DNA from: Candidatus Moranella endobia PCIT
Lineage (GTDB): Bacteria; Pseudomonadota; Gammaproteobacteria; Enterobacterales; Enterobacteriaceae
DNA: 32,000 nt
Direction of reading: 5' to 3'
NCBI RefSeq assembly: GCF_000219175.1
Contig: NC_015735.1
Coordinates: 120,001 to 152,000, forward strand
In this document: piece after piece, positions 943 through 13,864 of the stretch
Layout: each line of letters opens with the position of its first letter
Position numbering within the stretch: the stretch's first letter is position 1
Translations under genes and position numbers: made by a program
The notes under the pieces: generated by a model
What the model saw: only the letters and a program-made list of their open reading frames with translations
Told to the model about the DNA's origin: nothing
The model's database searches: none

Positions 943-1353
943 ATGCGTCATTACGAAATAGTTTTTATGGTGCATCCTGACCAAAGCGAACAGGTTACTG
1001 GTATGATCGAACGCTATAGCAACCTGATTGCTATTGCTAAAGGCAAAATCCATCGTCTTGAAGACTGGGGACGTCGTCAGTTAGCGTACCCAATTAACAA
1101 ACTACATAAAGCGCACTACGTTCTGCTGAACGTAGAAGCACCACAGAAAGTAGTAGAAGAGCTAGAAATAGCTTTTCGCTTCAATGACGCCATTATCCGC
1201 AGCATAGTCATGCGTGTTAAGCACGCCGCAACTGAAGCATCTCCGATCGGAAAAGTAAAAGACGAACGCCGCAAGCGCCGTGAAAATTTTGTAATCGATA
1301 CTAACGAAGATTCTAATGCTGGTGATTCTGAAGAATACGATCATGTTAGATAG
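943..1353 (+). CDS. rpsF: 30S ribosomal protein S6
   Basis: [24 protein letters not shown]...[26 protein letters not shown] is near-identical to E. coli RpsF. AAGGAG lies 8 nt upstream of the ATG. It is followed by priB-rpsR-rplI as in enterobacteria. Confidence 0.97.
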
Positions 1354-1356
1354 ATC

Positions 1357-1683
1357 ATGTTAGCAAACCGCCTGATGCTGTCGGGCATAGTGTGTAAAAC
1401 ACCTATACGTAAGGTGAGTCCTTCCGGTATTTCACATTGCCAGTTTGTGCTTGAGCACCGTTCTGTGCAGCACGAGGCTGGTTTTTCACGCCAGGCATGG
1501 TGTAGATTGCCCGTTGTGTTTAGTGGGCAACAAACTATTAATATAAACAGTATTATATTAGGCACGCATATTGCAGTGCAGGGGTTCATTAGTTGCCATC
1601 AAGGACGCAATGGCTTAAGCAAAATAGTGTTACATGCTAAAGTGTTACATGCTGAGCCAATTGATTTGATATATGGAGACTAG
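1357..1683 (+). CDS. priB: Primosomal replication protein N (PriB)
   Basis: [46 protein letters not shown] matches E. coli PriB ([46 protein letters not shown]). The conserved operon position supports the call. It carries an in-frame 15-bp tandem duplication near the 3' end (see findings). Confidence 0.93.
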
Positions 1684-1687
1684 CCTT

Positions 1688-1915
1688 ATGGGAAGTTATT
1701 TCCGTCGTCGCAAATTCTGCCGTTTTACCGCGGATGGCGTTGTTGAGATTGATTACAAAGACATCGCTATGCTGAAAAACTATATCACTGAAAGTGGAAA
1801 AATTGTCCCGAGCCGGATTACCGGTACTCGTGCCAAATACCAACGGCAGCTAGCCAGCGCTATCAAGCGTGCGCGTTACCTTGCGCTATTGCCGTACACT
1901 GATCTGCATCATTAA
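1688..1915 (+). CDS. rpsR: 30S ribosomal protein S18
   Basis: [72 protein letters not shown] is near-identical to E. coli RpsR. I chose the internal ATG at 1688, which has GGAG 9 nt upstream, rather than the track start at 1673, to match the orthologue N-terminus (MARYFRRRKF). Confidence 0.95.
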
Positions 1916-1953
1916 TCAGTCTGGATCTACTAATTATTTGAGAGGAGAAAATG

Positions 1954-2406
1954 ATGCAAGTGATTCTGCTTGCTAAAGTAAGTAACCTGGGCGGTTTTAG
2001 TGATCAGGTTAAAGTGAAAGCTGGCTATGCTCGTAACTACCTAATTCCGCAGGGCAAAGCAGTGCCAGCTACCAAGGAAAACTTGAAAGAGTTTGAGGTA
2101 CGTCGTGCTGAATTGGAAACAAAACTGGCGGATATTCAGGCTGCCGCTGAAACACGCGCTGCAAAACTTCAGGAAGTAGGTTGCATTATTATTGCGGCTA
2201 AAGCAGGCAACGAAGGTAAACTTTTTGGCTCTATTGGTGCCCGTAACGTCGCGGACGCAATAACTACTGCAGGAGTTAATGTAACTAAAAGTGAAGTACG
2301 TTTGCCACATGGTGTGTTGCGCAATATTGGTGACCACGACGTCAAAATTCAGGTATATAACGATATGTTCGTTACCCTGAATGTAGTAATTGTGCCTGAA
2401 GCATAA
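1954..2406 (+). CDS. rplI: 50S ribosomal protein L9
   Basis: MQVILL.KV.NLG...[22 protein letters not shown] matches E. coli RplI. I chose the second ATG of the ATGATG pair because its spacing to GAGGAG is better and the length matches the orthologue. Confidence 0.95.
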
Positions 2407-2693
2407 CCGTAGCAGGCCGGCCTGACTAACCTATGTCATAGTTCCCCTATGATGGCGGGCATGGCTGCAATAACAGCCATACATACATAACATAATATGG
2501 TGGTTTAGTTTGTTGTTGTTTTTGCTGAACAAAACATAAAAAATAGCAAACCTGGGAATCACGTAGACTGTTCTTCTTGAAATTCTGCATGTAATTGTAA
2601 TGGTGGTTACGACTAGATCTCATTATGACGCAAACTGTGCGACTTGTTGATTGAGGCTATTACAGTAAATTATTATTAGAATAGGAGAATGAA

Positions 2694-3689
2694 ATGATAC
2701 ATATTGTCTACGTTGCTAGCCCAGAAAGTCAGCAAATACACGTCTGGCAAATGGATAATCAAGGCTCGCTAACATTATTGCAAGTGTTAAACACCCCCGG
2801 TCAAGGGAAGCCGATGGCAATTCATCCAGCGAACACACACCTATATATTGGTGTTCGGCCGGTATGTGGTGTGGTAAGCTACTACATTGATAAACTAGGG
2901 TTGTTAACCGAAGCTAATATAACGCCGTTGCCGGGTAGCCCGACGCATTTAACCACAGATTCAAAGGGCAAGAAACTGTACAGCGTTTCCTATAGCAGCA
3001 GTTGTCTCAGCGTCAGCCCCATCGATGAGCATGGTATCGTCGGCGCGCCGCAGCAAACCCTGGAAGGATTAACCAACTGCCATTCCGCTAATGTAGATAC
3101 CATCAATAAGTTACTCTGGGTGCCATGCCTGCAAGAAGATCGTATACGACTCTATGCTATTGACGAGTCTGAAAATTTGACAACTCTAAAGCCGGTGGCG
3201 CTAAAAAGTACCGGCGCTGGACCACGTCATATGGCTTTTCACTACAGCGGTAATTATGCCTATGTCATCAATGAACTCAGCGGTATGGTGCAGGTGATTG
3301 CTATAAACGCCGCGCGCACCGGTCCGCGTATTGTGCAAACACTAGATATGATGCATTCTTCTGGATTGAGTGATACCCGCTGGGCGGCTGATATTCATAT
3401 TACTCCTAATGGAAATTTGCTTTACTGTTGCGATCGCACCACAAGCATTATCAGCTGGTTTGCAGTGTCGGAGGAAGGCAACGTACTAAGTTTTTTGGGC
3501 CAACAGAAAACTGAAACCCAGCCTTGTGGGTTCAATATCGATACCCAAGGGCGTTTCCTAGTTGCTGCCGGGCAGAAATCGCACCATATAGCAGTGTACG
3601 CCATCGATGCAAAATCAGGCAAACTAGCGCCCATAGCACGCTATGAGGTAGGGCAAGGACCGATGTGGGTATCGATCATAAAACGGTAA
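2694..3689 (+). CDS. pgl: 6-phosphogluconolactonase (YbhE/Pgl type, beta-propeller)
   Basis: 331 aa, the same length as E. coli Pgl. Shared motifs are VYVASPESQQIHVW, GSPTHL, CHSANV, GAGPRHMAFH, SDTRWAADIHITP.G, ETQPCGFN, AAGQKSHHI.VY and VGQGPMWV. GGAG precedes the ATG. Confidence 0.9.
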   Translation: MIHIVYVASPESQQIHVWQMDNQGSLTLLQVLNTPGQGKPMAIHPANTHLYIGVRPVCGVVSYYIDKLGLLTEANITPLPGSPTHLTTDSKGKKLYSVSYSSSCLSVSPIDEHGIVGAPQQTLEGLTNCHSANVDTINKLLWVPCLQEDRIRLYAIDESENLTTLKPVALKSTGAGPRHMAFHYSGNYAYVINELSGMVQVIAINAARTGPRIVQTLDMMHSSGLSDTRWAADIHITPNGNLLYCCDRTTSIISWFAVSEEGNVLSFLGQQKTETQPCGFNIDTQGRFLVAAGQKSHHIAVYAIDAKSGKLAPIARYEVGQGPMWVSIIKR

Positions 3690-3808
3690 GTAACTACTGC
3701 ACGTGCGCACCTAGCTTTTAGCTTAAAGCTATCTAGACCATAGAACAACATCAATCAGGCATGTTTCTCATGTATAGTGGTTTGCGGATAGATAGTAAGA
3801 GGAAACAG

Positions 3809-4730
3809 ATGTTAAAAAAAGCATGACATAAACATTGCAGATTATGATGCTGAATTGTGGCAGGCAATGGAGCAGGAAGTAATGCGCCAGAAAGAGCACA
3901 TTGAACTGATTGCCTCTGAAATACACTAGTACCAGAATTATGCAGGCTAAGGGCTCACAGCTAACCAATAAGTACGCTGAAGGTTATCCCGGTTACTATG
4001 GCGGATGTGAATATGTAGACGTGGTTGAGCAATTGGCAATCGATCGCGCGAAAGCTTTGTTTGGTGCCGATTATGCAAATGTACAGCCTCATTCTGGATC
4101 ACAGGCAAATTATGCTATTTCAGCCGGTCGATACAGTGCTTTACATGCATCTAGCACACGGTGGTCATTTGACAAACGGTGCTTCAGTTAATCTGGTAAA
4201 TTATATAATTTATATAATAAATAATATCGTGCATTAATGTATGACAGACTTAATTCAGCTGTTTTCCATGGTGCGCAGGGCGGTCCGTTAATGCATGTCA
4301 TCGCCGCTAAGGCAGTTGCCTTGAAATAGGCCATGGAGCCAGCGTTTAAAACTTACCAGCAACAGATAGTAGAGGTTTTCTTATTTCGCGGTTTCAAAGT
4401 AGTATCAGGCGCTACCAATAATCACCTGTTCTTGCTAGATTTACGGGAAAAAACCTTAACGGACAAGAGGCTGATATTGCCCTGGGCCGCGCAAATATTA
4501 CTGTTAACAAAAACAATGTACCGAACGATCAACAAAGCCCGTTCGTTACCTACTGGATAAGTATTGGTACACCAGCTGTTGTCACCCGCCGTGGTTTTAA
4601 CGAAGCTGATGTGCGCACATTGGCGGGCTGGATGTGCGACGTTCTTGATAATATCAACAACAATGCAGTAATTACACGTACCAAAAACAACGTTCTGGAG
4701 CTATGTGCCCTTCATACAGTTTACGGTTTA
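3809..4730 (+). pseudogene. glyA: Serine hydroxymethyltransferase pseudogene (frameshifts, in-frame stops, internal deletion)
   Basis: GlyA-like peptide segments are spread over three frames. They are MLKK.., [150 protein letters not shown], ..NITVNKN.VPND...PFVT.G, GTPA...RGF.EA....[12 protein letters not shown]. In-frame stops lie at 3824-3826, 3927-3929 and 4327-4329. The span is about 920 nt against about 1250 nt for an intact glyA. The missing middle includes the region that carries the PLP-binding lysine in E. coli (around HVVTTTTHKTL). Confidence 0.88.
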
Positions 4731-4838
4731 TGTTCAATGACAGCGTTTTTACCCGCTAGAATATGTTGATAAAAAACTAAGACGTTATCCTGATTTTGAA
4801 CATAACCACATTACCGATATCAAGGTAACTACGCCAAC

Positions 4839-6020: not shown

Positions 6021-6353
6021 AATACTATCTTAGTTACTAGTTCTATTCAGTTAGACCACCACAGGTGGGTAATTGATATTTCATGATTGTATTTTTTTTG
6101 CTCATTCATGTCGACGTATTTTTCGGTATAGATAGAAGCAAATATAGCAATAATCGCTATATTTATTAATTTATCCCTTCTAAACATGTCATAAAACTAA
6201 CACATCGGGACTATATATAGTCTAAGTATGGCTGTGCTAGATATTAGCTAGAACCTAAATTATCTATGATAACTTGTGATAAGTTATCATTTATCATACA
6301 ATATATATAAAATAAGCAGTTAATACGTCAGTTTTAGCCAGATGAGGAAGTGC

Positions 6354-6962
6354 ATGTTTACAGGGATTGTGCAAACCACAGTGCCCATTATTGCGATTGA
6401 AGAAAAAAATTATTTTCGTACCCATTACCTCCGTCTTCCTGCTGAGCTGTTGCTTGATTTATCCATTGGCTCCTCTGTCGCCCATAATGGTTGTTGTCTG
6501 ACAGTTACCGGAATTAATAGCAACATGGTAAGTTTTGATCTGATGAAAGAAACGCTCATACTTACCAACTTGGGCCAGCTTGGGGTCGGCGACGAGGTTA
6601 ACATTGAACGGGCGGCGCGCCTACAGGCAGAAATTGGTGGACATCTTATGTCAGGGCACGTTAGATGCACAGCCGAACTAACTAAAATTATCACATCAGA
6701 GAACAACCGACAGATTTGGTGTTCAATGCAAAATAGGCAACTAATGAAATATATCCTGCATAAAGGCTATATCGGCGTTGAAGGCATAAGTTTGACGGTA
6801 GGCGAGATTACAGGCAGCTGTTTTTGTGTGCATGTGATACCTGAAACTTTGTTGCGCACCAACCTAGGTCAAAAACGGCTCGGCGAGAGCGTCAATATCG
6901 AACTTGACCCACAGACGCAGGTAATTGTTAATACCGTGGAACGGGTATTAGTTAGTAAGTAA
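6354..6962 (+). CDS. ribE: Riboflavin synthase (alpha chain)
   Basis: MFTGIVQ.T..I..I.EK..FRTH...LP......L..G.SVAHNGCCLTVT.IN...VSFDLMKETL..TNLG.L.VGD.VN.ERAA....EIGGHLMSGH....AE..KI.TSENNRQIW...Q..QLMKYIL.KG.IG..GISLTVGE.T...FCVH.IPETL.RT.LG.K.LG..VNIE.DPQTQ matches E. coli RibC/RibE. I chose the start at 6354 (MFTGIVQ), which has GAGGAAG 5 nt upstream, rather than the track start at 6342. Confidence 0.92.
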   Translation: MFTGIVQTTVPIIAIEEKNYFRTHYLRLPAELLLDLSIGSSVAHNGCCLTVTGINSNMVSFDLMKETLILTNLGQLGVGDEVNIERAARLQAEIGGHLMSGHVRCTAELTKIITSENNRQIWCSMQNRQLMKYILHKGYIGVEGISLTVGEITGSCFCVHVIPETLLRTNLGQKRLGESVNIELDPQTQVIVNTVERVLVSK

Positions 6963-7101
6963 GTTAGGCGCGAACGTACAGCAGTATCTCGATCTAGTAC
7001 GGGATGTAGGTAGATAGCAGCATAGCACCGGAAGGACCATCGATAGCAGCCAATAAATTATAATCTTAACAACTGAGTATTCCGATAAGTATATATCTTA
7101 T

Positions 7102-7932
7102 ATGAGATGCGCAAGGCATGACAAACTACAAAAAATCCTGGCCCGCTCCGGATATGGTGCACGCAGAAAGATCGAAGCACTTATTGAGCAGGGTCGCGTG
7201 AGCGTAGACGGTCAAGTTGCTACTCTGGGAGATCGTGTGGAGGTAATTAATACTACCAAGATCCGCATTGATGGTCGAATTATCACTATCCAACCGGTAG
7301 AAAACAATCGTTGCCGCGTGCTGGCATATTATAAACAGGAAGGCGAACTATGTACACGCCGCGATCCGGATGGAAGGCCAACGGTGTTTGATCGCCTGCC
7401 ACTTCTCAATCATTCCCGCTGGGTGGCCATTGGCCGCCTGGATATCAACACATCAGGGCTATTGTTATTTACCAATGATGGAGAACTTGCTCATTTCTTG
7501 ATGCATCCTAGCTGTGAAATCGAACGTGAATATGCCGTGCGTGTTTTCGGCATAGTGGATGAGGGGAAATTACGTCAGCTGACCAGCGGTGTTCAGCTAG
7601 AAGATGGTTATGCTTACTTTAACAGCTTGAAGTTACAGGAGGGGGGAACAGGTCTAAACCAGTGGTACACTGTTACTCTGAAGGAAGGGCGTAATCGCGA
7701 AGTGCGGCGAATGTGGGAAGCAGTTGGACTACAAGTAAGTCGTCTTATCCGCGTGCGCTACGGTAACATTAGCCTGCCCAAGGGAATGCAACGCGGCAGT
7801 TGGGCTATGCTGCCGCCAGAACAGATAAGTTATCTTATGCGACGGGATTATACTGGTAACACAATCAAAGCACATTCACGCTGTAGTGGTAACCACCATA
7901 GCAAAAAAAAAAAACAACTACACAGTAGATAA
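7102..7932 (+). CDS. rluB: 23S rRNA pseudouridine(2605) synthase RluB
   Basis: KLQKILARSGYGARRKIEALIEQGRVSVDG (S4 domain), CRVLAYYK.EGELCTR.DP.GRPTVFDRLP...RW.A.GRLD.NT.GLLLFT.DGELA..LMHPS.E.EREYAVRVFG.VD..KLR.L..GVQLEDG and NQWY.VTL.EGRNREVRR.WEAVG.QVSRLIRVRYG.I.LPKG..RG match E. coli RluB. The C-terminal tail diverges and contains an A12 homopolymer (7903-7914). Confidence 0.88.
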   Translation: MRCARHDKLQKILARSGYGARRKIEALIEQGRVSVDGQVATLGDRVEVINTTKIRIDGRIITIQPVENNRCRVLAYYKQEGELCTRRDPDGRPTVFDRLPLLNHSRWVAIGRLDINTSGLLLFTNDGELAHFLMHPSCEIEREYAVRVFGIVDEGKLRQLTSGVQLEDGYAYFNSLKLQEGGTGLNQWYTVTLKEGRNREVRRMWEAVGLQVSRLIRVRYGNISLPKGMQRGSWAMLPPEQISYLMRRDYTGNTIKAHSRCSGNHHSKKKKQLHSR

Positions 7933-8013
7933 CAAATTACATTGTAAGTAATTGATATTAGTTAGTGTGCTATTTACATTGTGTATTTATTTGGTTCAGT
8001 TCAGCCATGCAAG

Positions 8014-8046
8014 TTGACTTTTTGCCTCTATACTAGTTTACTAGTA
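8014..8046 (+). promoter_or_regulatory. trp operon promoter with overlapping TrpR operator
   Basis: TTGACT(8014-8019)-17 nt-TTTACT(8037-8042). The stretch TTGACTTTTTGCCTCTATACTAGTTTACTAGTACGTAGTT aligns position for position with the E. coli trp promoter/operator TTGACAATTAATCATCGAACTAGTTAACTAGTACGCAAGTT. The operator core is ACTAGTTTACTAGT here and ACTAGTTAACTAGT in E. coli. Confidence 0.75.
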
Positions 8047-8078
8047 CGTAGTTAAATACAAGTCATCGAGATACTCAC

Positions 8079-8156
8079 ATAATTATACTTGTCACTTTAC
8101 TTTTTCGCTGGCGGCGTATTTTTTGATGTGGTTGGTGGCGTTATCATGCGTTGTAA
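8079..8156 (+). other. trpL: Eroded trp leader-peptide (trpL) region
   Basis: GGTTGGTGGCG (8130-8140, codons Gly-Trp-Trp-Arg) and the downstream CATGCGT are conserved with the E. coli leader. That frame has no ATG, GTG or TTG between the upstream TAG (8049-8051) and the Trp codons. The position that aligns with the E. coli ATG reads ATA (8079-8081). An in-frame TGA (8124-8126) lies 2 codons before TGG TGG. Confidence 0.45.
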
Positions 8157-8182
8157 TCATTAGAACAAGCAAGATCCAGACT

Positions 8183-8207
8183 AGCCCGCGGCGCACGCGG
8201 GCTTTTT
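8183..8207 (+). terminator. trp attenuator (3:4-type intrinsic terminator hairpin)
   Basis: AGCCCGCG (8183-8190) / loop GCGCA / CGCGGGCT (8196-8203), followed by a run of 5 T, located 28 nt before the trpE ATG. The E. coli attenuator AGCCCGCCTAATGAGCGGGCTTTTTTTT sits in the same position, but the U-tract here is shorter. Confidence 0.7.
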
Positions 8208-8234
8208 CATGGGTAACAATTAGGAAAATAGATA

Positions 8235-9809
8235 ATGCAACAAATAACAAGTAGCCAATACCAGATAGAATTGCTGTACGCTCAAGCCTCTTACAGTTCC
8301 GATCCTACGGCTATATTCAACCAGTTGTGTGGTAACCGTCCCGCGACACTATTGCTGGAATCAGCTGAGATTGATAAGAAGCATGATCTTGAAAGCATGA
8401 TGGTAGTGGACAGCGCGCTGCGGATCACCGCCCTTGGCCAAACTGTAACAATTCAGGCTCTGAGTGCCAACGGCGCCGCTCTGTTGCCGCTGCTAAAAGA
8501 AGCTTTACCGGAGCAGGTGCCGTTGATTGTGCATCCCTATGGCTGTGAGCTAACTTTCCCACAAACGGAACAAGCAGTAGATGAGGACGCCAGGCTATGT
8601 TCGTTGTCTGTATTTGATTGTCTACGTCTGCTACTGAAGCTGGTTAAGCAACCGCCAGCATCACCGAAAGCGATGTTTTTCGGGGGCTTGTTCGCTTATG
8701 ATCTAGTTGCTGGTTTTGAAGCTTTGCCGTTACTGCGTCCAGGACAACGTTGCCCAGATTATTGCTTTTATCTTGCTGAAACTCTTCTGATACTAGATCA
8801 TCAGCAGCAAACCTGTGAACTGCAGTGCAGCCTATTTAGCCCCAATACAGTGGAAAAACAGCGATTGCAGCAACGTATTGAGCAATTACGACATCAGCTG
8901 CTAACTCAGGTGCCTGAACCACTACCGCATTTGGTTATTGATACCATGTCACTAACCTGCAGCCATAGCGACGAGGAGTATGGCATAATTATACGTCGCA
9001 TGCAGCAGGCCATTCGCAAAGGAGAAATTTTCCAGGTAGTGCCATCTAGGAGATTTTTCCTGCCATGTGCTTCTTCGCTTGCCGCCTACCGCACGTTGAA
9101 AAAAAATAATCCCAGTCCATATATGTTTTTCATGCAAGATAAGGAATTCACTTTGTTTGGTGCCTCGCCGGAAAGCGCGTTAAAATACGATCCAAACAAC
9201 AGGCAAATTGAAATTTACCCGATTGCTGGAACCCGCCCGCGTGGTCACCGCGATGACGGTACGTTGGATGCCGATCTCGACAGCAGAATCGAGCTGGCAA
9301 TGAGAATTGATCATAAAGAGTTAGCTGAGCATCTGATGTTAGTAGATTTGGCGCGCAACGATCTTGCGCGCATCTGTGAACCTGGCACTCGCTATGTAGC
9401 AGATCTTACCAAAGTCGATCGCTATTCTTTCGTCATGCATTTAGTTTCGCGGGTGGTAGGTAAGCTGAGAGCTGATCTTGACGTGCTACATGCTTATCGT
9501 GCTTGCATGAACATGGGTACATTGAGTGGAGCACCAAAAGTTCGAGCAATGCAGCTTATAGCCGAGGCTGAAGGTGAACGCCGCGGTAGTTACGGCGGTG
9601 CAATTGGTTATTTCACTGCTACTGGCGCTCTCGATACCTGTATTATCATCCGTTCCGCCTATGTAGAAGACGGCATAGCCACAGTACAGGCAGGGGCGGG
9701 CGTGGTACTGGATTCTGTTCCACAAACTGAAGCCGACGAAAGTCGCAATAAAGCACGTGCGGTTTTGCGCGCGATTGCTACCACCCATGATGCAAAGGAA
9801 CTGTTCTAA
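8235..9809 (+). CDS. trpE: Anthranilate synthase component I
   Basis: 524 aa, collinear with E. coli TrpE. Shared motifs are [110 protein letters not shown]...[57 protein letters not shown] and [31 protein letters not shown]. Confidence 0.97.
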
Positions 9810-10387
9810 TGGCCGATATTCTGTTGCTCGATAACATCGACTCTTTTACCTATAATATAGTGGATCAGTTACGTGCTAGCTCTCATAGAGTATTAATTTA
9901 CCGCAATCATTTGCCGGCAGAACTTATCACGCGGTCGCTTTCTAAAATGAAACAACCGATTCTAATACTATCGCCTGGGCCAGGAGCACCAGCTCAGGCA
10001 GGCTGCATGCCAGAATTGCTTACCAAACTACGAGGTCGGTTACCAATCATCGGCATCTGCCTAGGGCATCAGGCAATAGTAGAAGCCTACAGTGGTCATA
10101 TAGGCCAGGCTGATGAGATTATGCATGGTAAAGCTTCGCCTATACATCACGATAATCAGGGGATGTTCGCAGGGATACCTAATCCGCTGACGGTGGCGCG
10201 CTATCATTCACTGATATGCAGTCAGGTACCGAAGTCGCTAACAGTTAACGCTCACTATAACAAAATGATCATGGCAGTACGCAATGACGAAGATCGGATC
10301 TGTGGCTTCCAATTTCATCCTGAATCAATTTTAACTACCCAAGGAGCAAATTTGTTAAATCAAACACTAGTTTGGGCGCTGACATAA
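9809..10387 (+). CDS. trpG: Anthranilate synthase component II (glutamine amidotransferase only)
   Basis: [20 protein letters not shown].....[71 protein letters not shown] and [22 protein letters not shown] match residues 1 to about 195 of the E. coli TrpG-TrpD fusion. The start overlaps the trpE stop (TAATG). The ORF stops exactly where the phosphoribosyltransferase domain begins in E. coli. Confidence 0.93.
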
Positions 10388-10464
10388 CACACCACTAGTA
10401 ACGATATTTTATGATCAATACCTAATGGCTACCGCGCAGAATGGCCATGACAGCAAGAGGATAA
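10388..10464 (+). pseudogene. trpD: Relic of anthranilate phosphoribosyltransferase (almost complete deletion)
   Basis: Only 84 nt separate the trpG stop from the trpC ATG, whereas a TrpD domain needs about 1 kb. Directly in frame after the trpG stop the sequence reads HTTSNDIL*, comparable to E. coli ..ANTLQPILEKLY at the start of the TrpD domain. The last codons, ACA GCA AGA GGA TAA (..TARG*, 10450-10464), match the E. coli TrpD end GCG GCA CGA GGG TAA (..AARG*), which also sits just before the trpC ATG. Confidence 0.5.
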
Positions 10465-10471
10465 TCAATCC

Positions 10472-11827
10472 ATGCAGGACAAGATACTTGAAACAATAGT
10501 CGCCGCTAAATATAAATGGGTGGCTAATCGAAAACAGCTGCAGCCGTTGGATAGTTTTTTTTATCAGGTACATCCCAGCACCCGCAGTTTTTATCAAGCA
10601 CTGTCAGGTACTAGGACGTCTTTTATCCTAGAGTGCAAACAAGCGTCGCCGTCTAAGGGCATTATTCGCGCTAATTTTGACCCGCTAGCTATCGCTGGGG
10701 TGTACCGACATTACTCTTCTGCTATTTCGGTGCTAACCGAAGAGAAATCTTTCCAGGGCAGTTTCGATTTCTTACGTCAAGTTAGACAAACTGTGGGACA
10801 GCCGATCTTATGCAAAGATTTTATCATCGATCCCTGGCAGATTTACCTAGCTAGATTGTATCAGGCTGACGCTATTTTACTGATGTTATCCGTCCTGGAT
10901 GATGATACCTACTGTACACTAACTTCAGTGGCCCACAGCCTAAGTATGGGAGTGTTGACTGAAATATTAAACAATGCCGAGCGCGAGCGAGCGATTGCGC
11001 TGAAAGCGCAGGTGGTTGGTATCAATAATCGAGATTTACGTGATTTGTCCATAGATTTGAACCGCACCCGCACCCTTGGTCCTTGTCTTCCAGCAGGAGT
11101 CACGGTCATTAGCGAGTCTGGCATGAAGCATTATCGTCAAGTACACGAACTAAGCTACTACGTCAATGGTTTTCTTATTGGTAGTGCGCTAATGGCCGAA
11201 CTAGAATTGATGCTGGCGGTAAACAGGGTGCTACTAGGGGAAAACAAAGTCTGTGGTTTGACCCGCGCCGCTGATGCGCGCGCTTCTTTGGATGCCGGCA
11301 TGCTTTACGGTGGGATCATTTTTGTTCTTGGTTCTCCTAGGCAGGTCAAAAATAATTGCTGCACCGTCATTGCCGGTGCAGCGCTGCGCTATATTGGTGT
11401 GTTTTTTGATGCTCCGATGAGCAAAATTACTGCTAAAGCAAGAGCACTATCGTTGGCAGCAGTACAGTTACACGGTAGCGAAGATAAGACCTATATTGAC
11501 GCTCTGCGTCAGTCACTGCCAATCGATTGCCGTATATGGAAAGCACTAAATATAAACAATACCATACTGGCACGCAAACTGGCCCAAGTAGAGCGCTATT
11601 TGATTGACAATGGTGGCGGCAGCGGCAAACCTTTCGACTGGTTGCTATTAAATGATGCAGCGCTAAAGAACGTCATGCTTGCTGGCGGTCTGGGTGTAGA
11701 TAATTGTGTGGCCGCTGCCAGTTTTAGCGGCGTTGGCCTGGATTACAATTCTGGAGTCGAAAGTTCACCTGGTATTAAAGATCATAATAAACTAGCAACG
11801 GTATTTCAAACGCTGCGTGCATATTAA
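10472..11827 (+). CDS. trpC: Bifunctional indole-3-glycerol-phosphate synthase / phosphoribosylanthranilate isomerase
   Basis: 451 aa, collinear with E. coli TrpC(F). Shared motifs are FILECK.ASPSKG.IR..FDP, SAISVLT.EK.FQGSF.FL, PILCKDFIIDP.QIYLAR.YQADA.LLMLSVLDDD.Y, MGVLTE, VVGINNRDLRDLSIDLNRTR, ISESG, GFLIGSALMA, RVLLGENKVCGLTR, LSLAAVQLHG.E, D.GGGSG..FDW.LL and LAGGLG.DNC. AAGAGGA lies upstream. Confidence 0.95.
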   Translation: MQDKILETIVAAKYKWVANRKQLQPLDSFFYQVHPSTRSFYQALSGTRTSFILECKQASPSKGIIRANFDPLAIAGVYRHYSSAISVLTEEKSFQGSFDFLRQVRQTVGQPILCKDFIIDPWQIYLARLYQADAILLMLSVLDDDTYCTLTSVAHSLSMGVLTEILNNAERERAIALKAQVVGINNRDLRDLSIDLNRTRTLGPCLPAGVTVISESGMKHYRQVHELSYYVNGFLIGSALMAELELMLAVNRVLLGENKVCGLTRAADARASLDAGMLYGGIIFVLGSPRQVKNNCCTVIAGAALRYIGVFFDAPMSKITAKARALSLAAVQLHGSEDKTYIDALRQSLPIDCRIWKALNINNTILARKLAQVERYLIDNGGGSGKPFDWLLLNDAALKNVMLAGGLGVDNCVAAASFSGVGLDYNSGVESSPGIKDHNKLATVFQTLRAY

Positions 11828-11865: not shown

Positions 11866-13056
11866 ATGACACTAGTTAATCCTTATTTTGGCGAGTTTGG
11901 CGGTATGTATGTGCCCCAAATTCTTATGCCAACGCTGCTCCAACTGGAAGAGGCGTTCGTTAACGCCCAAAGCGACCATGCATTTCAGGCTGAATTCAGT
12001 AGTCTGCTTACACATTACGCTGGGCGGCCGACACCACTAACCATTTGCCACAATCTAACCACCGGTACTAAGACAAAATTGTATCTGAAACGAGAAGACT
12101 TACTACACGGTGGCGCCCATAAAACCAACCAGGTATTGGGCCAAGCACTCTTGGCCAAACGCATGGGAAAAACAGAAATTATCGCTGAAACTGGTGCTGG
12201 CCAGCACGGCGTAGCATCGGCACTTTCTTCTGCATTGCTTGGGCTGAAATGCCGCATTTATATGGGTGAAAAAGATATTGAGCGCCAGTCACCGAACGTA
12301 TTTCGTATGAAGCTGATGGGTGCAGAGGTCATTCCAGTACACAGCGGTTCCTCTACCCTAAAAGATGCCTGCAACGAAGCTTTGCGCGACTGGTCCGACA
12401 GTTATGAAAGAGCTCACTATATGCTAGGCACCGCTGCCGGTCCACATCCGTTCCCTACCATCGTGCGCGAATTTCAGCGAATGATAGGCGAGGAGACGCG
12501 CGCACAAATATTAGAGCACGAACAACGCCTGCCGGATGCATTAATTGCCTGTGTTGGTGGCGGTTCCAACGCCATCGGGATGTTCGCTGATTTCATTAAT
12601 GAACCTGACGTGCGCCTGATAGGCGTGGAGCCAGGCGGTAAAGGTATCGAAACTGGCAATCATGGTGCATCTCTTAAACATGGCCGGACTGGCATCTACT
12701 TCGGCATGAAGTCGCCGATGATGCAATCCGCCGAAGGACAGATTGAGGAGTCATATTCGATCTCAGCTGGTTTGGACTTTCCTTCGGTTGGTCCCCAGCA
12801 TGCTTACCTTGATAGCATCGGTCGCGCCGAGTACGTATCGGTTACTGATGAAGAAGCATTGGGCGCATTCCAGCGCCTATCACGCCAAGCTGGCATTATA
12901 CCAGCGCTTGAATCATCCCACGCTTTAGCCCATGCGCTACGTATGATTCAAGAGGCACCAAAAAAAGAACAGATACTCGTAGTAAATCTGTCTGGCCGAG
13001 GAGATAAAGATATTTTAACCGTTCATGATATTTTATCCGAACGAGGAGAAATCTAA
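11866..13056 (+). CDS. trpB: Tryptophan synthase beta chain
   Basis: [86 protein letters not shown] and [15 protein letters not shown] are near-identical to E. coli TrpB. 396 aa. Confidence 0.97.
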
Positions 13057-13057
13057 T

Positions 13058-13864
13058 ATGGAACGCTATCAGAAATTATTTAGCAAGCTAACTTCACGCA
13101 CTGAAGGCGCTTTCGTGCCGTTTGTGACGCTTGGTGATCCTAGTCCTGTACTATCGCTGCAAATTATCGATACTCTTATTAGCGCAGGGGCCGATGCTTT
13201 AGAACTAGGCATACCGTTCTCCGATCCATTGGCCGATGGCCCAACTATTCAAAAAGCCAACCTGCGCGCGTTTGCCGCCGGCGTAACGCCGGCACACTGT
13301 TTTGAACTACTATCATCCATTCGTGCAAAATACGCTGAGATACCAATTGGATTGCTAATGTATGCCAATTTGGTATATAACGAAGGTATTGACTCTTTCT
13401 ACGCCCGCTGCGCCGCTGTTGGCGTTGACTCAGTGCTTGTAGCTGACGTGCCGCTGCAAGAAAGCCTACTATTTCGCCAAGCTGCGTTACGCCATGATGT
13501 GGCACCAATTTTTATTTGTCCACCAAACGCTGACAGCGAGCTGCTGCACGAAATAGCTTTTTACGGCCGAGCGTATACCTATCTGCTTTCGCGTGCAGGT
13601 GTCACTGGCAGTGAAAAAAGGGCAAATAAGCCGCTGACACAGCTTGTCAATGCATTGAAGAAGTATAAAGCAGCGCCCATACTTCAGGGCTTCGGTATTG
13701 CTGAACCCATCCAAGTACGCGCTGCTTTGCAGGCTGGTACCGCAGGTGCTATCTCAGGCTCGGCCATCGTGCGTATTATTGAAGAGCATGTGGATCATTC
13801 AACACTGATGCTAGAAAAATTGTCACTATTCGTTAGTGCAATGAAAGCTGCCACCCGCTGTTGA
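13058..13864 (+). CDS. trpA: Tryptophan synthase alpha chain
   Basis: MERY..LF..L.....[12 protein letters not shown]....[112 protein letters not shown] and LQGFGI...QV.AA...[14 protein letters not shown] match E. coli TrpA. The start at 13058 sits 1 nt after the trpB stop (TAA-T-ATG); the longer track ORF starting at 13025 is rejected. Confidence 0.96.

Follow-up and report, generated by a model that had tools for sequence, protein, structure and literature searches.

The trp operon of Candidatus Moranella endobia PCIT: deletion of trpD and its probable complementation by Candidatus Tremblaya princeps

Candidatus Moranella endobia is a gammaproteobacterium of the citrus mealybug Planococcus citri, where it is housed within another bacterium, Candidatus Tremblaya princeps (PMC3620526). 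The two bacteria have been described as forming a 'metabolic patchwork' (McCutcheon & von Dohlen 2011; Husnik et al. 2013; Husnik & McCutcheon 2016), in which functional redundancy is confined to dapA and aroK (Lopez-Madrigal et al., PMC4144094). Here we analyzed the trp operon found in a 32,000-nucleotide (nt) stretch of the genome of Moranella strain PCIT (NC_015735.1, positions 120,001 to 152,000). This whole stretch is termed the window, and all positions given for Moranella refer to its forward strand. The operon lacks trpD, the gene for anthranilate phosphoribosyltransferase, between trpG and trpC(F). It is the same locus in the same organism as the one treated in the patchwork literature, and the trpD gap as such is already known, since published accounts of a tryptophan pathway divided between the two bacteria go back to 2011. 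What is added here is minor and descriptive. It concerns the size of the deletion (a loss of ~938 nt), the use of the 32-nt tail of trpD as the ribosome-binding region of trpC, and the split state of the ancestral trpG and trpD, none of which is spelled out in the patchwork literature that we consulted.

A close comparison outside mealybugs is the aphid Cinara cedri, in which the tryptophan pathway is divided between Buchnera BCc, carrying trpEG on a plasmid, and Serratia symbiotica SCc, carrying trpDCBA. The same EG/DCBA split has been described in Tuberolachnus salignus and for Carsonella and the secondary symbiont of Heteropsylla cubana. Common to these systems and to Moranella is that the pathway is divided between two obligate co-symbionts and that anthranilate is exchanged. 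However, whereas the systems of the Cinara cedri type have a single split after anthranilate, in the Moranella/Tremblaya pathway (EG/D/C(F)BA) both ends stay with one partner, which is short of the middle step alone, and this calls for either two crossings or a sharing of enzymes. The literature also notes that the division in mealybugs does not follow the aphid pattern and that several intermediaries are needed.

The trp operon and the missing trpD

The trp genes of the window lie on one strand with tight spacing, in the order trpE-trpG-(84 nt)-trpC(F)-trpB-trpA. The first gene, trpE (8235..9809), encodes anthranilate synthase component I of 524 amino acids (aa), which matches the NCBIfam model NF010079 over its full length (833 bits, cutoff 471). 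It is followed by trpG (9809..10387), encoding a stand-alone glutamine amidotransferase of 192 aa (TIGR00566, 177 bits, cutoff 121). Downstream of the 84-nt trpG-trpC gap (10388..10471) comes trpC(F) (10472..11827), whose product of 451 aa is a bifunctional indole-3-glycerol phosphate synthase/phosphoribosylanthranilate isomerase (NF006945, 643 bits, cutoff 380, model positions 6-461 of 461). The operon ends with the genes for the beta and alpha subunits of tryptophan synthase, trpB (11866..13056; 396 aa; TIGR00263, 614 bits, cutoff 392) and trpA (13058..13864; 268 aa; TIGR00262, 332 bits, cutoff 102). All five genes are intact. None of them contains an internal stop, and all five proteins match the expected NCBIfam models across essentially their whole length, TrpE, TrpC(F), TrpB and TrpA scoring above the curated equivalog cutoffs and TrpG above the subfamily cutoff.

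These results bear out a preliminary description of the window, which had claimed that the five genes are full length, that they retain their catalytic motifs and that translational coupling between them is tight. Catalytic residues were followed in TrpG, which can be aligned over its entire length with its 192-aa counterparts in the relatives and in which C84, H170 and E172 are invariant. The two junctions that had been put forward for coupling can be read directly: trpE and trpG overlap in TAATG, and trpB and trpA are joined as TAA-T-ATG. Compared with those of a Sodalis relative, the Moranella proteins show aa identities of 88% (TrpE), 84% (TrpG), 76.5% (TrpC(F)), 91.7% (TrpB) and 84% (TrpA). 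The neighbouring RluB is 72% identical to that of the same Sodalis relative, as opposed to the 76-92% of the five Trp proteins. The same TrpG sequence, with neighbouring genes that also match, is found on CP003881.1 (538,203 bp), which is Moranella strain PCVAL (PMC3620526). By the coordinates of this locus, the counterpart of the window is approximately CP003881.1:459,252-491,251.

The corresponding region was read in five relatives, namely a Sodalis sp. metagenome-assembled genome (TrpG 84% identical), Candidatus Sodalis sp. SoCistrobi (83%), an ENA metagenome contig (81%), Doolittlea endobia and Gullanella endobia. All five have trpE-trpG followed, after a gap of 14-16 nt, by a separate downstream gene. 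The short ENA metagenome contig ends inside this gene, and the length of trpD was therefore taken from the other four loci, in which a trpD of 332-335 aa is followed by 7 nt and then by trpC(F)-trpB-trpA. In the closest relative the distance from trpG to trpC is 1,022 nt (16 nt, a trpD of 999 nt including the stop, and 7 nt), compared with 84 nt in Moranella, which gives a net loss of ~938 nt. The comparison bears out the near-total deletion of trpD proposed in the preliminary description. Moranella resembles the operons of the Sodalis clade, those of Doolittlea and Gullanella included, in gene order, in the trpE/trpG overlap, in the 192-aa TrpG and in the fused TrpC(F), and it differs from them in that trpD is absent. 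No open reading frame encoding the Glycos_trans_3N (PF02885) and Glycos_transf_3 (PF00591) domains is found in the 84-nt spacer, which has stops in all three forward frames. Moreover, a tblastn search of the 32-kb window with the Sodalis TrpD detected no trpD elsewhere in it (best E 1.5). No other Moranella lineage was found in the protein collection, the next closest TrpG (84%) being that of a Sodalis with an intact trpD.

The comparison also indicates what kind of gene was lost. In E. coli and Salmonella, TrpGD is a single fused polypeptide of ~531 aa, and in the corresponding 531-position model, PRK09522, the match to Moranella TrpG covers positions 1-191. This match is probably why the preliminary description compared the locus with E. 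coli. That reference is nevertheless unsuitable. The close relatives have a stand-alone TrpG of 192-193 aa, and the best 120 TrpG homologues, which come from Sodalis, Biostraticola, Pectobacterium, Hafnia, Serratia, Doolittlea and Gullanella, have lengths of 192-197 aa and are without exception unfused. We considered whether the 192-aa TrpG could be a cut-down TrpGD; the stand-alone 192-aa TrpG of all close relatives rules this out. The ancestral Sodalis-like operon was thus trpE-trpG-trpD-trpC(F)-trpB-trpA, with trpG and trpD unfused, as they have always been in the Moranella lineage. Since the relatives carry trpG and trpD as separate genes, what was lost is a whole gene and not a domain.

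We then asked how strongly the remaining genes are constrained. Pairwise ratios of nonsynonymous to synonymous substitution rates (dN/dS) between Moranella and the Sodalis relative, which are averages over the whole lineage, range from 0.034 to 0.106 over the five trp genes (trpE 0.057, trpC(F) 0.106, trpB 0.034). As a control we used Doolittlea, which has a complete operon; its dN/dS values against the same Sodalis relative are 0.030-0.086. This analysis, which had been suggested as a check for relaxed selection, gave no hint of relaxed constraint. The five remaining trp genes are therefore under strong purifying selection, and the pathway is not decaying.

The trpD remnant in the 84-nt spacer

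The preliminary description had proposed that both ends of trpD survive in the spacer, a 5' remnant reading 'NDIL' and a 3' remnant of five codons. Only the latter could be confirmed, and it is longer than stated. The last 32 nt of trpD, corresponding to ~10 codons and the TAA, are retained at 10433..10464 on the forward strand, where they are identical to the Sodalis trpD (nt 968-999) at 27 of 32 positions. Their local alignment score is 39, compared with 15.8 +/- 2.0 for shuffled sequences, and a score of 39 was not reached by any of 300 shuffles. The result does not depend on a single relative: in all nine relatives compared, the top-scoring local alignment runs up to the stop codon of trpD, and in eight of them the fraction of shuffles that score as well is at most 0.01. 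Sodalis RH13 gives a weaker match (shuffle fraction 0.12). The position of this tail of trpD, still in place directly upstream of trpC, fits the internal deletion that had been proposed in preference to a translocation.

The retained stretch contains the Shine-Dalgarno sequence of trpC, AAGAGGA, at 10455-10461, and the distance between the TAA and the ATG of trpC is 7 nt, as in the relatives. The end of trpD (...GCAGCAAGAGGATAA), which serves as the ribosome-binding site of trpC, is thus conserved in the Sodalis-clade relatives and in Moranella alike. Since both the AAGAGGA motif and the 7-nt spacing serve trpC, this function is likely the reason why the remnant has survived.

The situation is different for the 5' part of the spacer (10388..10432, forward strand). 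Local and anchored alignments of these 45 nt, evaluated against shuffles, revealed no homology above chance to either the trpG-trpD spacer or the 5' end of trpD in 8-9 relatives (best shuffle fraction 0.07), so that 'NDIL' stays at the chance level. Global alignments with a near-zero gap-extension penalty produced over-fragmented, meaningless spacer matches and were not used. The 5' part of the spacer may nonetheless be a decayed remnant. The ATG at 10411 was also considered as the old start codon of trpD and was discarded, as it did not reach significance in either the local or the anchored alignments.

Finally, we looked for signals that could separate the two halves of the operon. The trpG-trpC spacer contains no terminator-like site, and trpEG and trpC(F)BA are therefore probably still co-transcribed. 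A search for an internal promoter yielded a single weak match (9 of 12 positions) at 10379-10408, and such sites occur in this region at chance level.

Supply of the missing step

Complementation by a co-resident symbiont was one of three explanations offered in the preliminary description, and it is the one favoured by the evidence, because no second Moranella trpD was found in the window or among the best 80 TrpD loci and the best 120 TrpD proteins, the remaining genes are still constrained and the junction is real. In our reading, trpD was lost from Moranella by deletion and the phosphoribosyl transfer step is very probably supplied by a trpD of Tremblaya. P. citri has been reported to rely on a Tremblaya gene for tryptophan. 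Since trpD is the only trp gene that Moranella lacks, this gene should, by elimination, be trpD. The pathway figure of McCutcheon & von Dohlen (2011) reportedly shows a trpD in Tremblaya. Maconellicoccus hirsutus and Ferrisia virgata are not among the hosts reported to need Tremblaya for tryptophan, with which the retention of trpD in Doolittlea and Gullanella agrees. The hosts of Mikella endobia, Hoaglandella endobia and Trabutinella endobia, by contrast, are reported to need it. Remnants of a trp operon persist in Tremblaya, as its trpG is degraded or truncated; the annotation has this gene as functional in PCIT but lists it among the pseudogenes in PCVAL (PMC3620526, Table S1). The two genomes present mirror-image situations in this respect: trpG is degraded in Tremblaya, and in Moranella trpG is intact and trpD deleted.

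These data can be combined into a working model. One or more deletions totalling ~938 nt removed trpD, leaving a 32-nt tail that still provides trpC with its ribosome-binding site and its spacing. TrpEG of Moranella would convert chorismate to anthranilate, a TrpD encoded by Tremblaya would add the phosphoribosyl group, and TrpC(F) and TrpBA of Moranella would carry phosphoribosylanthranilate on to tryptophan. Anthranilate would then be shuttled from Moranella to Tremblaya and phosphoribosylanthranilate back, with tryptophan as a joint product. Alternatively, Moranella enzymes freed by lysis could act beside TrpD in the cytoplasm of Tremblaya, lysis of Moranella having been proposed as a route by which gene products are shared (PMC3620526). 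How the intermediates or the enzymes meet is speculative, and the sequence does not decide between these routes. That the gap is bridged by protein sharing, with TrpEG, TrpC(F) and TrpBA reaching the Tremblaya cytoplasm or TrpD reaching Moranella, seems to us a possibility worth keeping in mind, albeit a rather unlikely one. If true, it would mean that an amino-acid pathway is integrated at the level of its proteins, much as in an organelle. The sequence evidence is neutral on this point; it shows only that a one-step hole is stably kept in a strongly constrained operon. The locus is thus a clean example of the interdependence of nested symbionts, in which one step has been cut from a strongly conserved operon and the partner would keep that step. 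It raises the question of how a labile intermediate, or enzymes, cross the envelope of Moranella.

Several points weigh against complementation by Tremblaya. Phosphoribosylanthranilate is a labile phosphorylated intermediate, and we know of no transporter for it. That Tremblaya has a functional trpD is deduced from published statements and by elimination. With dS at 0.9-1.5, synonymous sites are near saturation, and a lineage-wide dN/dS is blind to very recent relaxation of constraint. Moreover, the two TrpD searches cover the best 80 loci and the best 120 proteins, short of an exhaustive scan of the 538-kb genome, and the search for loci relied on exact peptide words.

Four other explanations were weighed. 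The first is that the step is carried out by something else, namely a host gene, either native or transferred, or a non-orthologous phosphoribosyltransferase. Other symbiont pathways are indeed completed by bacterial genes in mealybug nuclear genomes, and the indirect evidence for the trpD of Tremblaya leaves some room for this idea. However, the transferred genes listed for making essential amino acids, biotin and riboflavin are cysK, dapF, lysA, bioABD and ribAD, with tms1 in addition, and trpD is not one of them. The same paper has tryptophan as a compound that both bacteria can make jointly without host genes. We therefore regard a substitute of this kind as improbable.

The second explanation is that of a dying pathway, in which the loss of trpD has newly ended tryptophan synthesis and the other trp genes are drifting neutrally. 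It could appeal to the regulatory region upstream of trpE, part of which looks degraded, with a leader peptide that lacks its ATG and has lost one of its two Trp codons (see below). Several observations argue against it. The five genes are full length and free of stops, and their dN/dS values are indistinguishable from those of Doolittlea, which has trpD; this contradicts the proposal of a pathway that has just been inactivated. Decay has left the 5' part of the spacer unrecognizable, suggesting that the deletion is not recent. In the literature, moreover, tryptophan is regarded as something that the consortium makes, and the host, a phloem-sap feeder, is in need of it. Taken together, a dying pathway is very improbable.

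The third explanation is relocation, meaning that an intact trpD lies elsewhere on the 538-kb Moranella chromosome and that the pathway is complete in Moranella after all. What speaks for it is one of scope: the sequence that was read amounts to 32 kb of the genome, and the TrpD searches cover the best 80 loci and the best 120 proteins. Within this scope the result was negative. No Moranella TrpD is found among the best 80 TrpD loci (one genome per species, down to 75% identity), which do include Doolittlea and psyllid secondary symbionts, nor among the best 120 TrpD proteins (down to 77% identity), even though less similar symbiont TrpDs, at 80-87% identity, are listed. The trpD tail that has stayed in place points to a deletion and not to an excision followed by reinsertion. 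In addition, relocation is at odds with published work, according to which P. citri depends for its tryptophan on a gene of Tremblaya and redundancy is restricted to dapA and aroK. The absence of a second Moranella trpD thus seems to rest on good evidence, short of proof, and relocation is extremely improbable.

Finally, an assembly collapse, in which a real trpD was dropped from the assembly, can be dismissed as next to impossible. Nothing was found in its favour, and it is contradicted on three counts, since the independent ENA contig ERZ1464665 NODE_1979 (1,151 bp) has the same junction, being identical over the end of trpE, trpG, the 84-nt spacer and the start of trpC, since PCIT and PCVAL were sequenced independently and are described as nearly identical (PMC3620526), and since the sequence that was read shows no repeats on either side of the junction.

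A separate observation from the TrpD searches concerns a TrpD that is named 'Liberibacter crescens BT-1' (P0124, on a contig of 1,522,119 bp). It is 89% identical to the Sodalis TrpD and thus of the enterobacterial type, and its label may reflect a naming or contamination problem.

The region upstream of trpE and other features of the window

A relic of the trp promoter, operator, leader and attenuator is found upstream of trpE at 8014..8215 on the forward strand, colinear with the trpL region of Sodalis sp. It begins with TTGACT (8014-8019), a relic of the trp promoter, and continues with a palindrome that resembles the TrpR operator, ACTAGTTTACTAGT (8032-8045). A leader-peptide relic follows at 8079-8126, in which ATA ATT is found in place of the ATG ATG of Sodalis and the tandem Trp codons TGG TGG have become TGG CGG (WW to WR). 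The hairpin at 8183-8203 is terminator-like and intact. The Rfam model Trp_leader matches the region with 34.2 bits (E=1.8e-5), which is below its gathering score of 41. Judged from these elements, all of which lie on the forward strand, attenuation control looks partly degraded, with the terminator still intact.

The surroundings of the leader have been rearranged as well. When window positions 6342-8235 are compared with positions 1184-4433 of the Sodalis locus, Moranella has ribE(+) and rluB(+) directly before the trp leader, whereas its relatives have rluB(-), yciO(-), a gene for a PHP-domain protein (-) and trpL upstream of trpE. In Moranella yciO and the PHP gene are thus gone, and rluB is inverted relative to Sodalis.

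Two further features of the window are unrelated to tryptophan synthesis. A region of 1.15 kb (3690-4838), flanked by a lactonase (pgl-like) gene and a gene for a metallophosphoesterase, contains no open reading frame of at least 100 aa. Over query positions 129-968 it matches E. coli glyA, the gene for serine hydroxymethyltransferase, with 71% identity in all 5,426 genomes, and a pseudogene of glyA is its most likely identity. Finally, positions 864-945, upstream of rpsF-priB/ssb-like-rpsR-rplI, match the RpsF leader of Rfam (RF02893) with 59 bits, which exceeds the gathering score, so that this autoregulatory ribosomal-protein leader has been retained in a genome of 538 kb.

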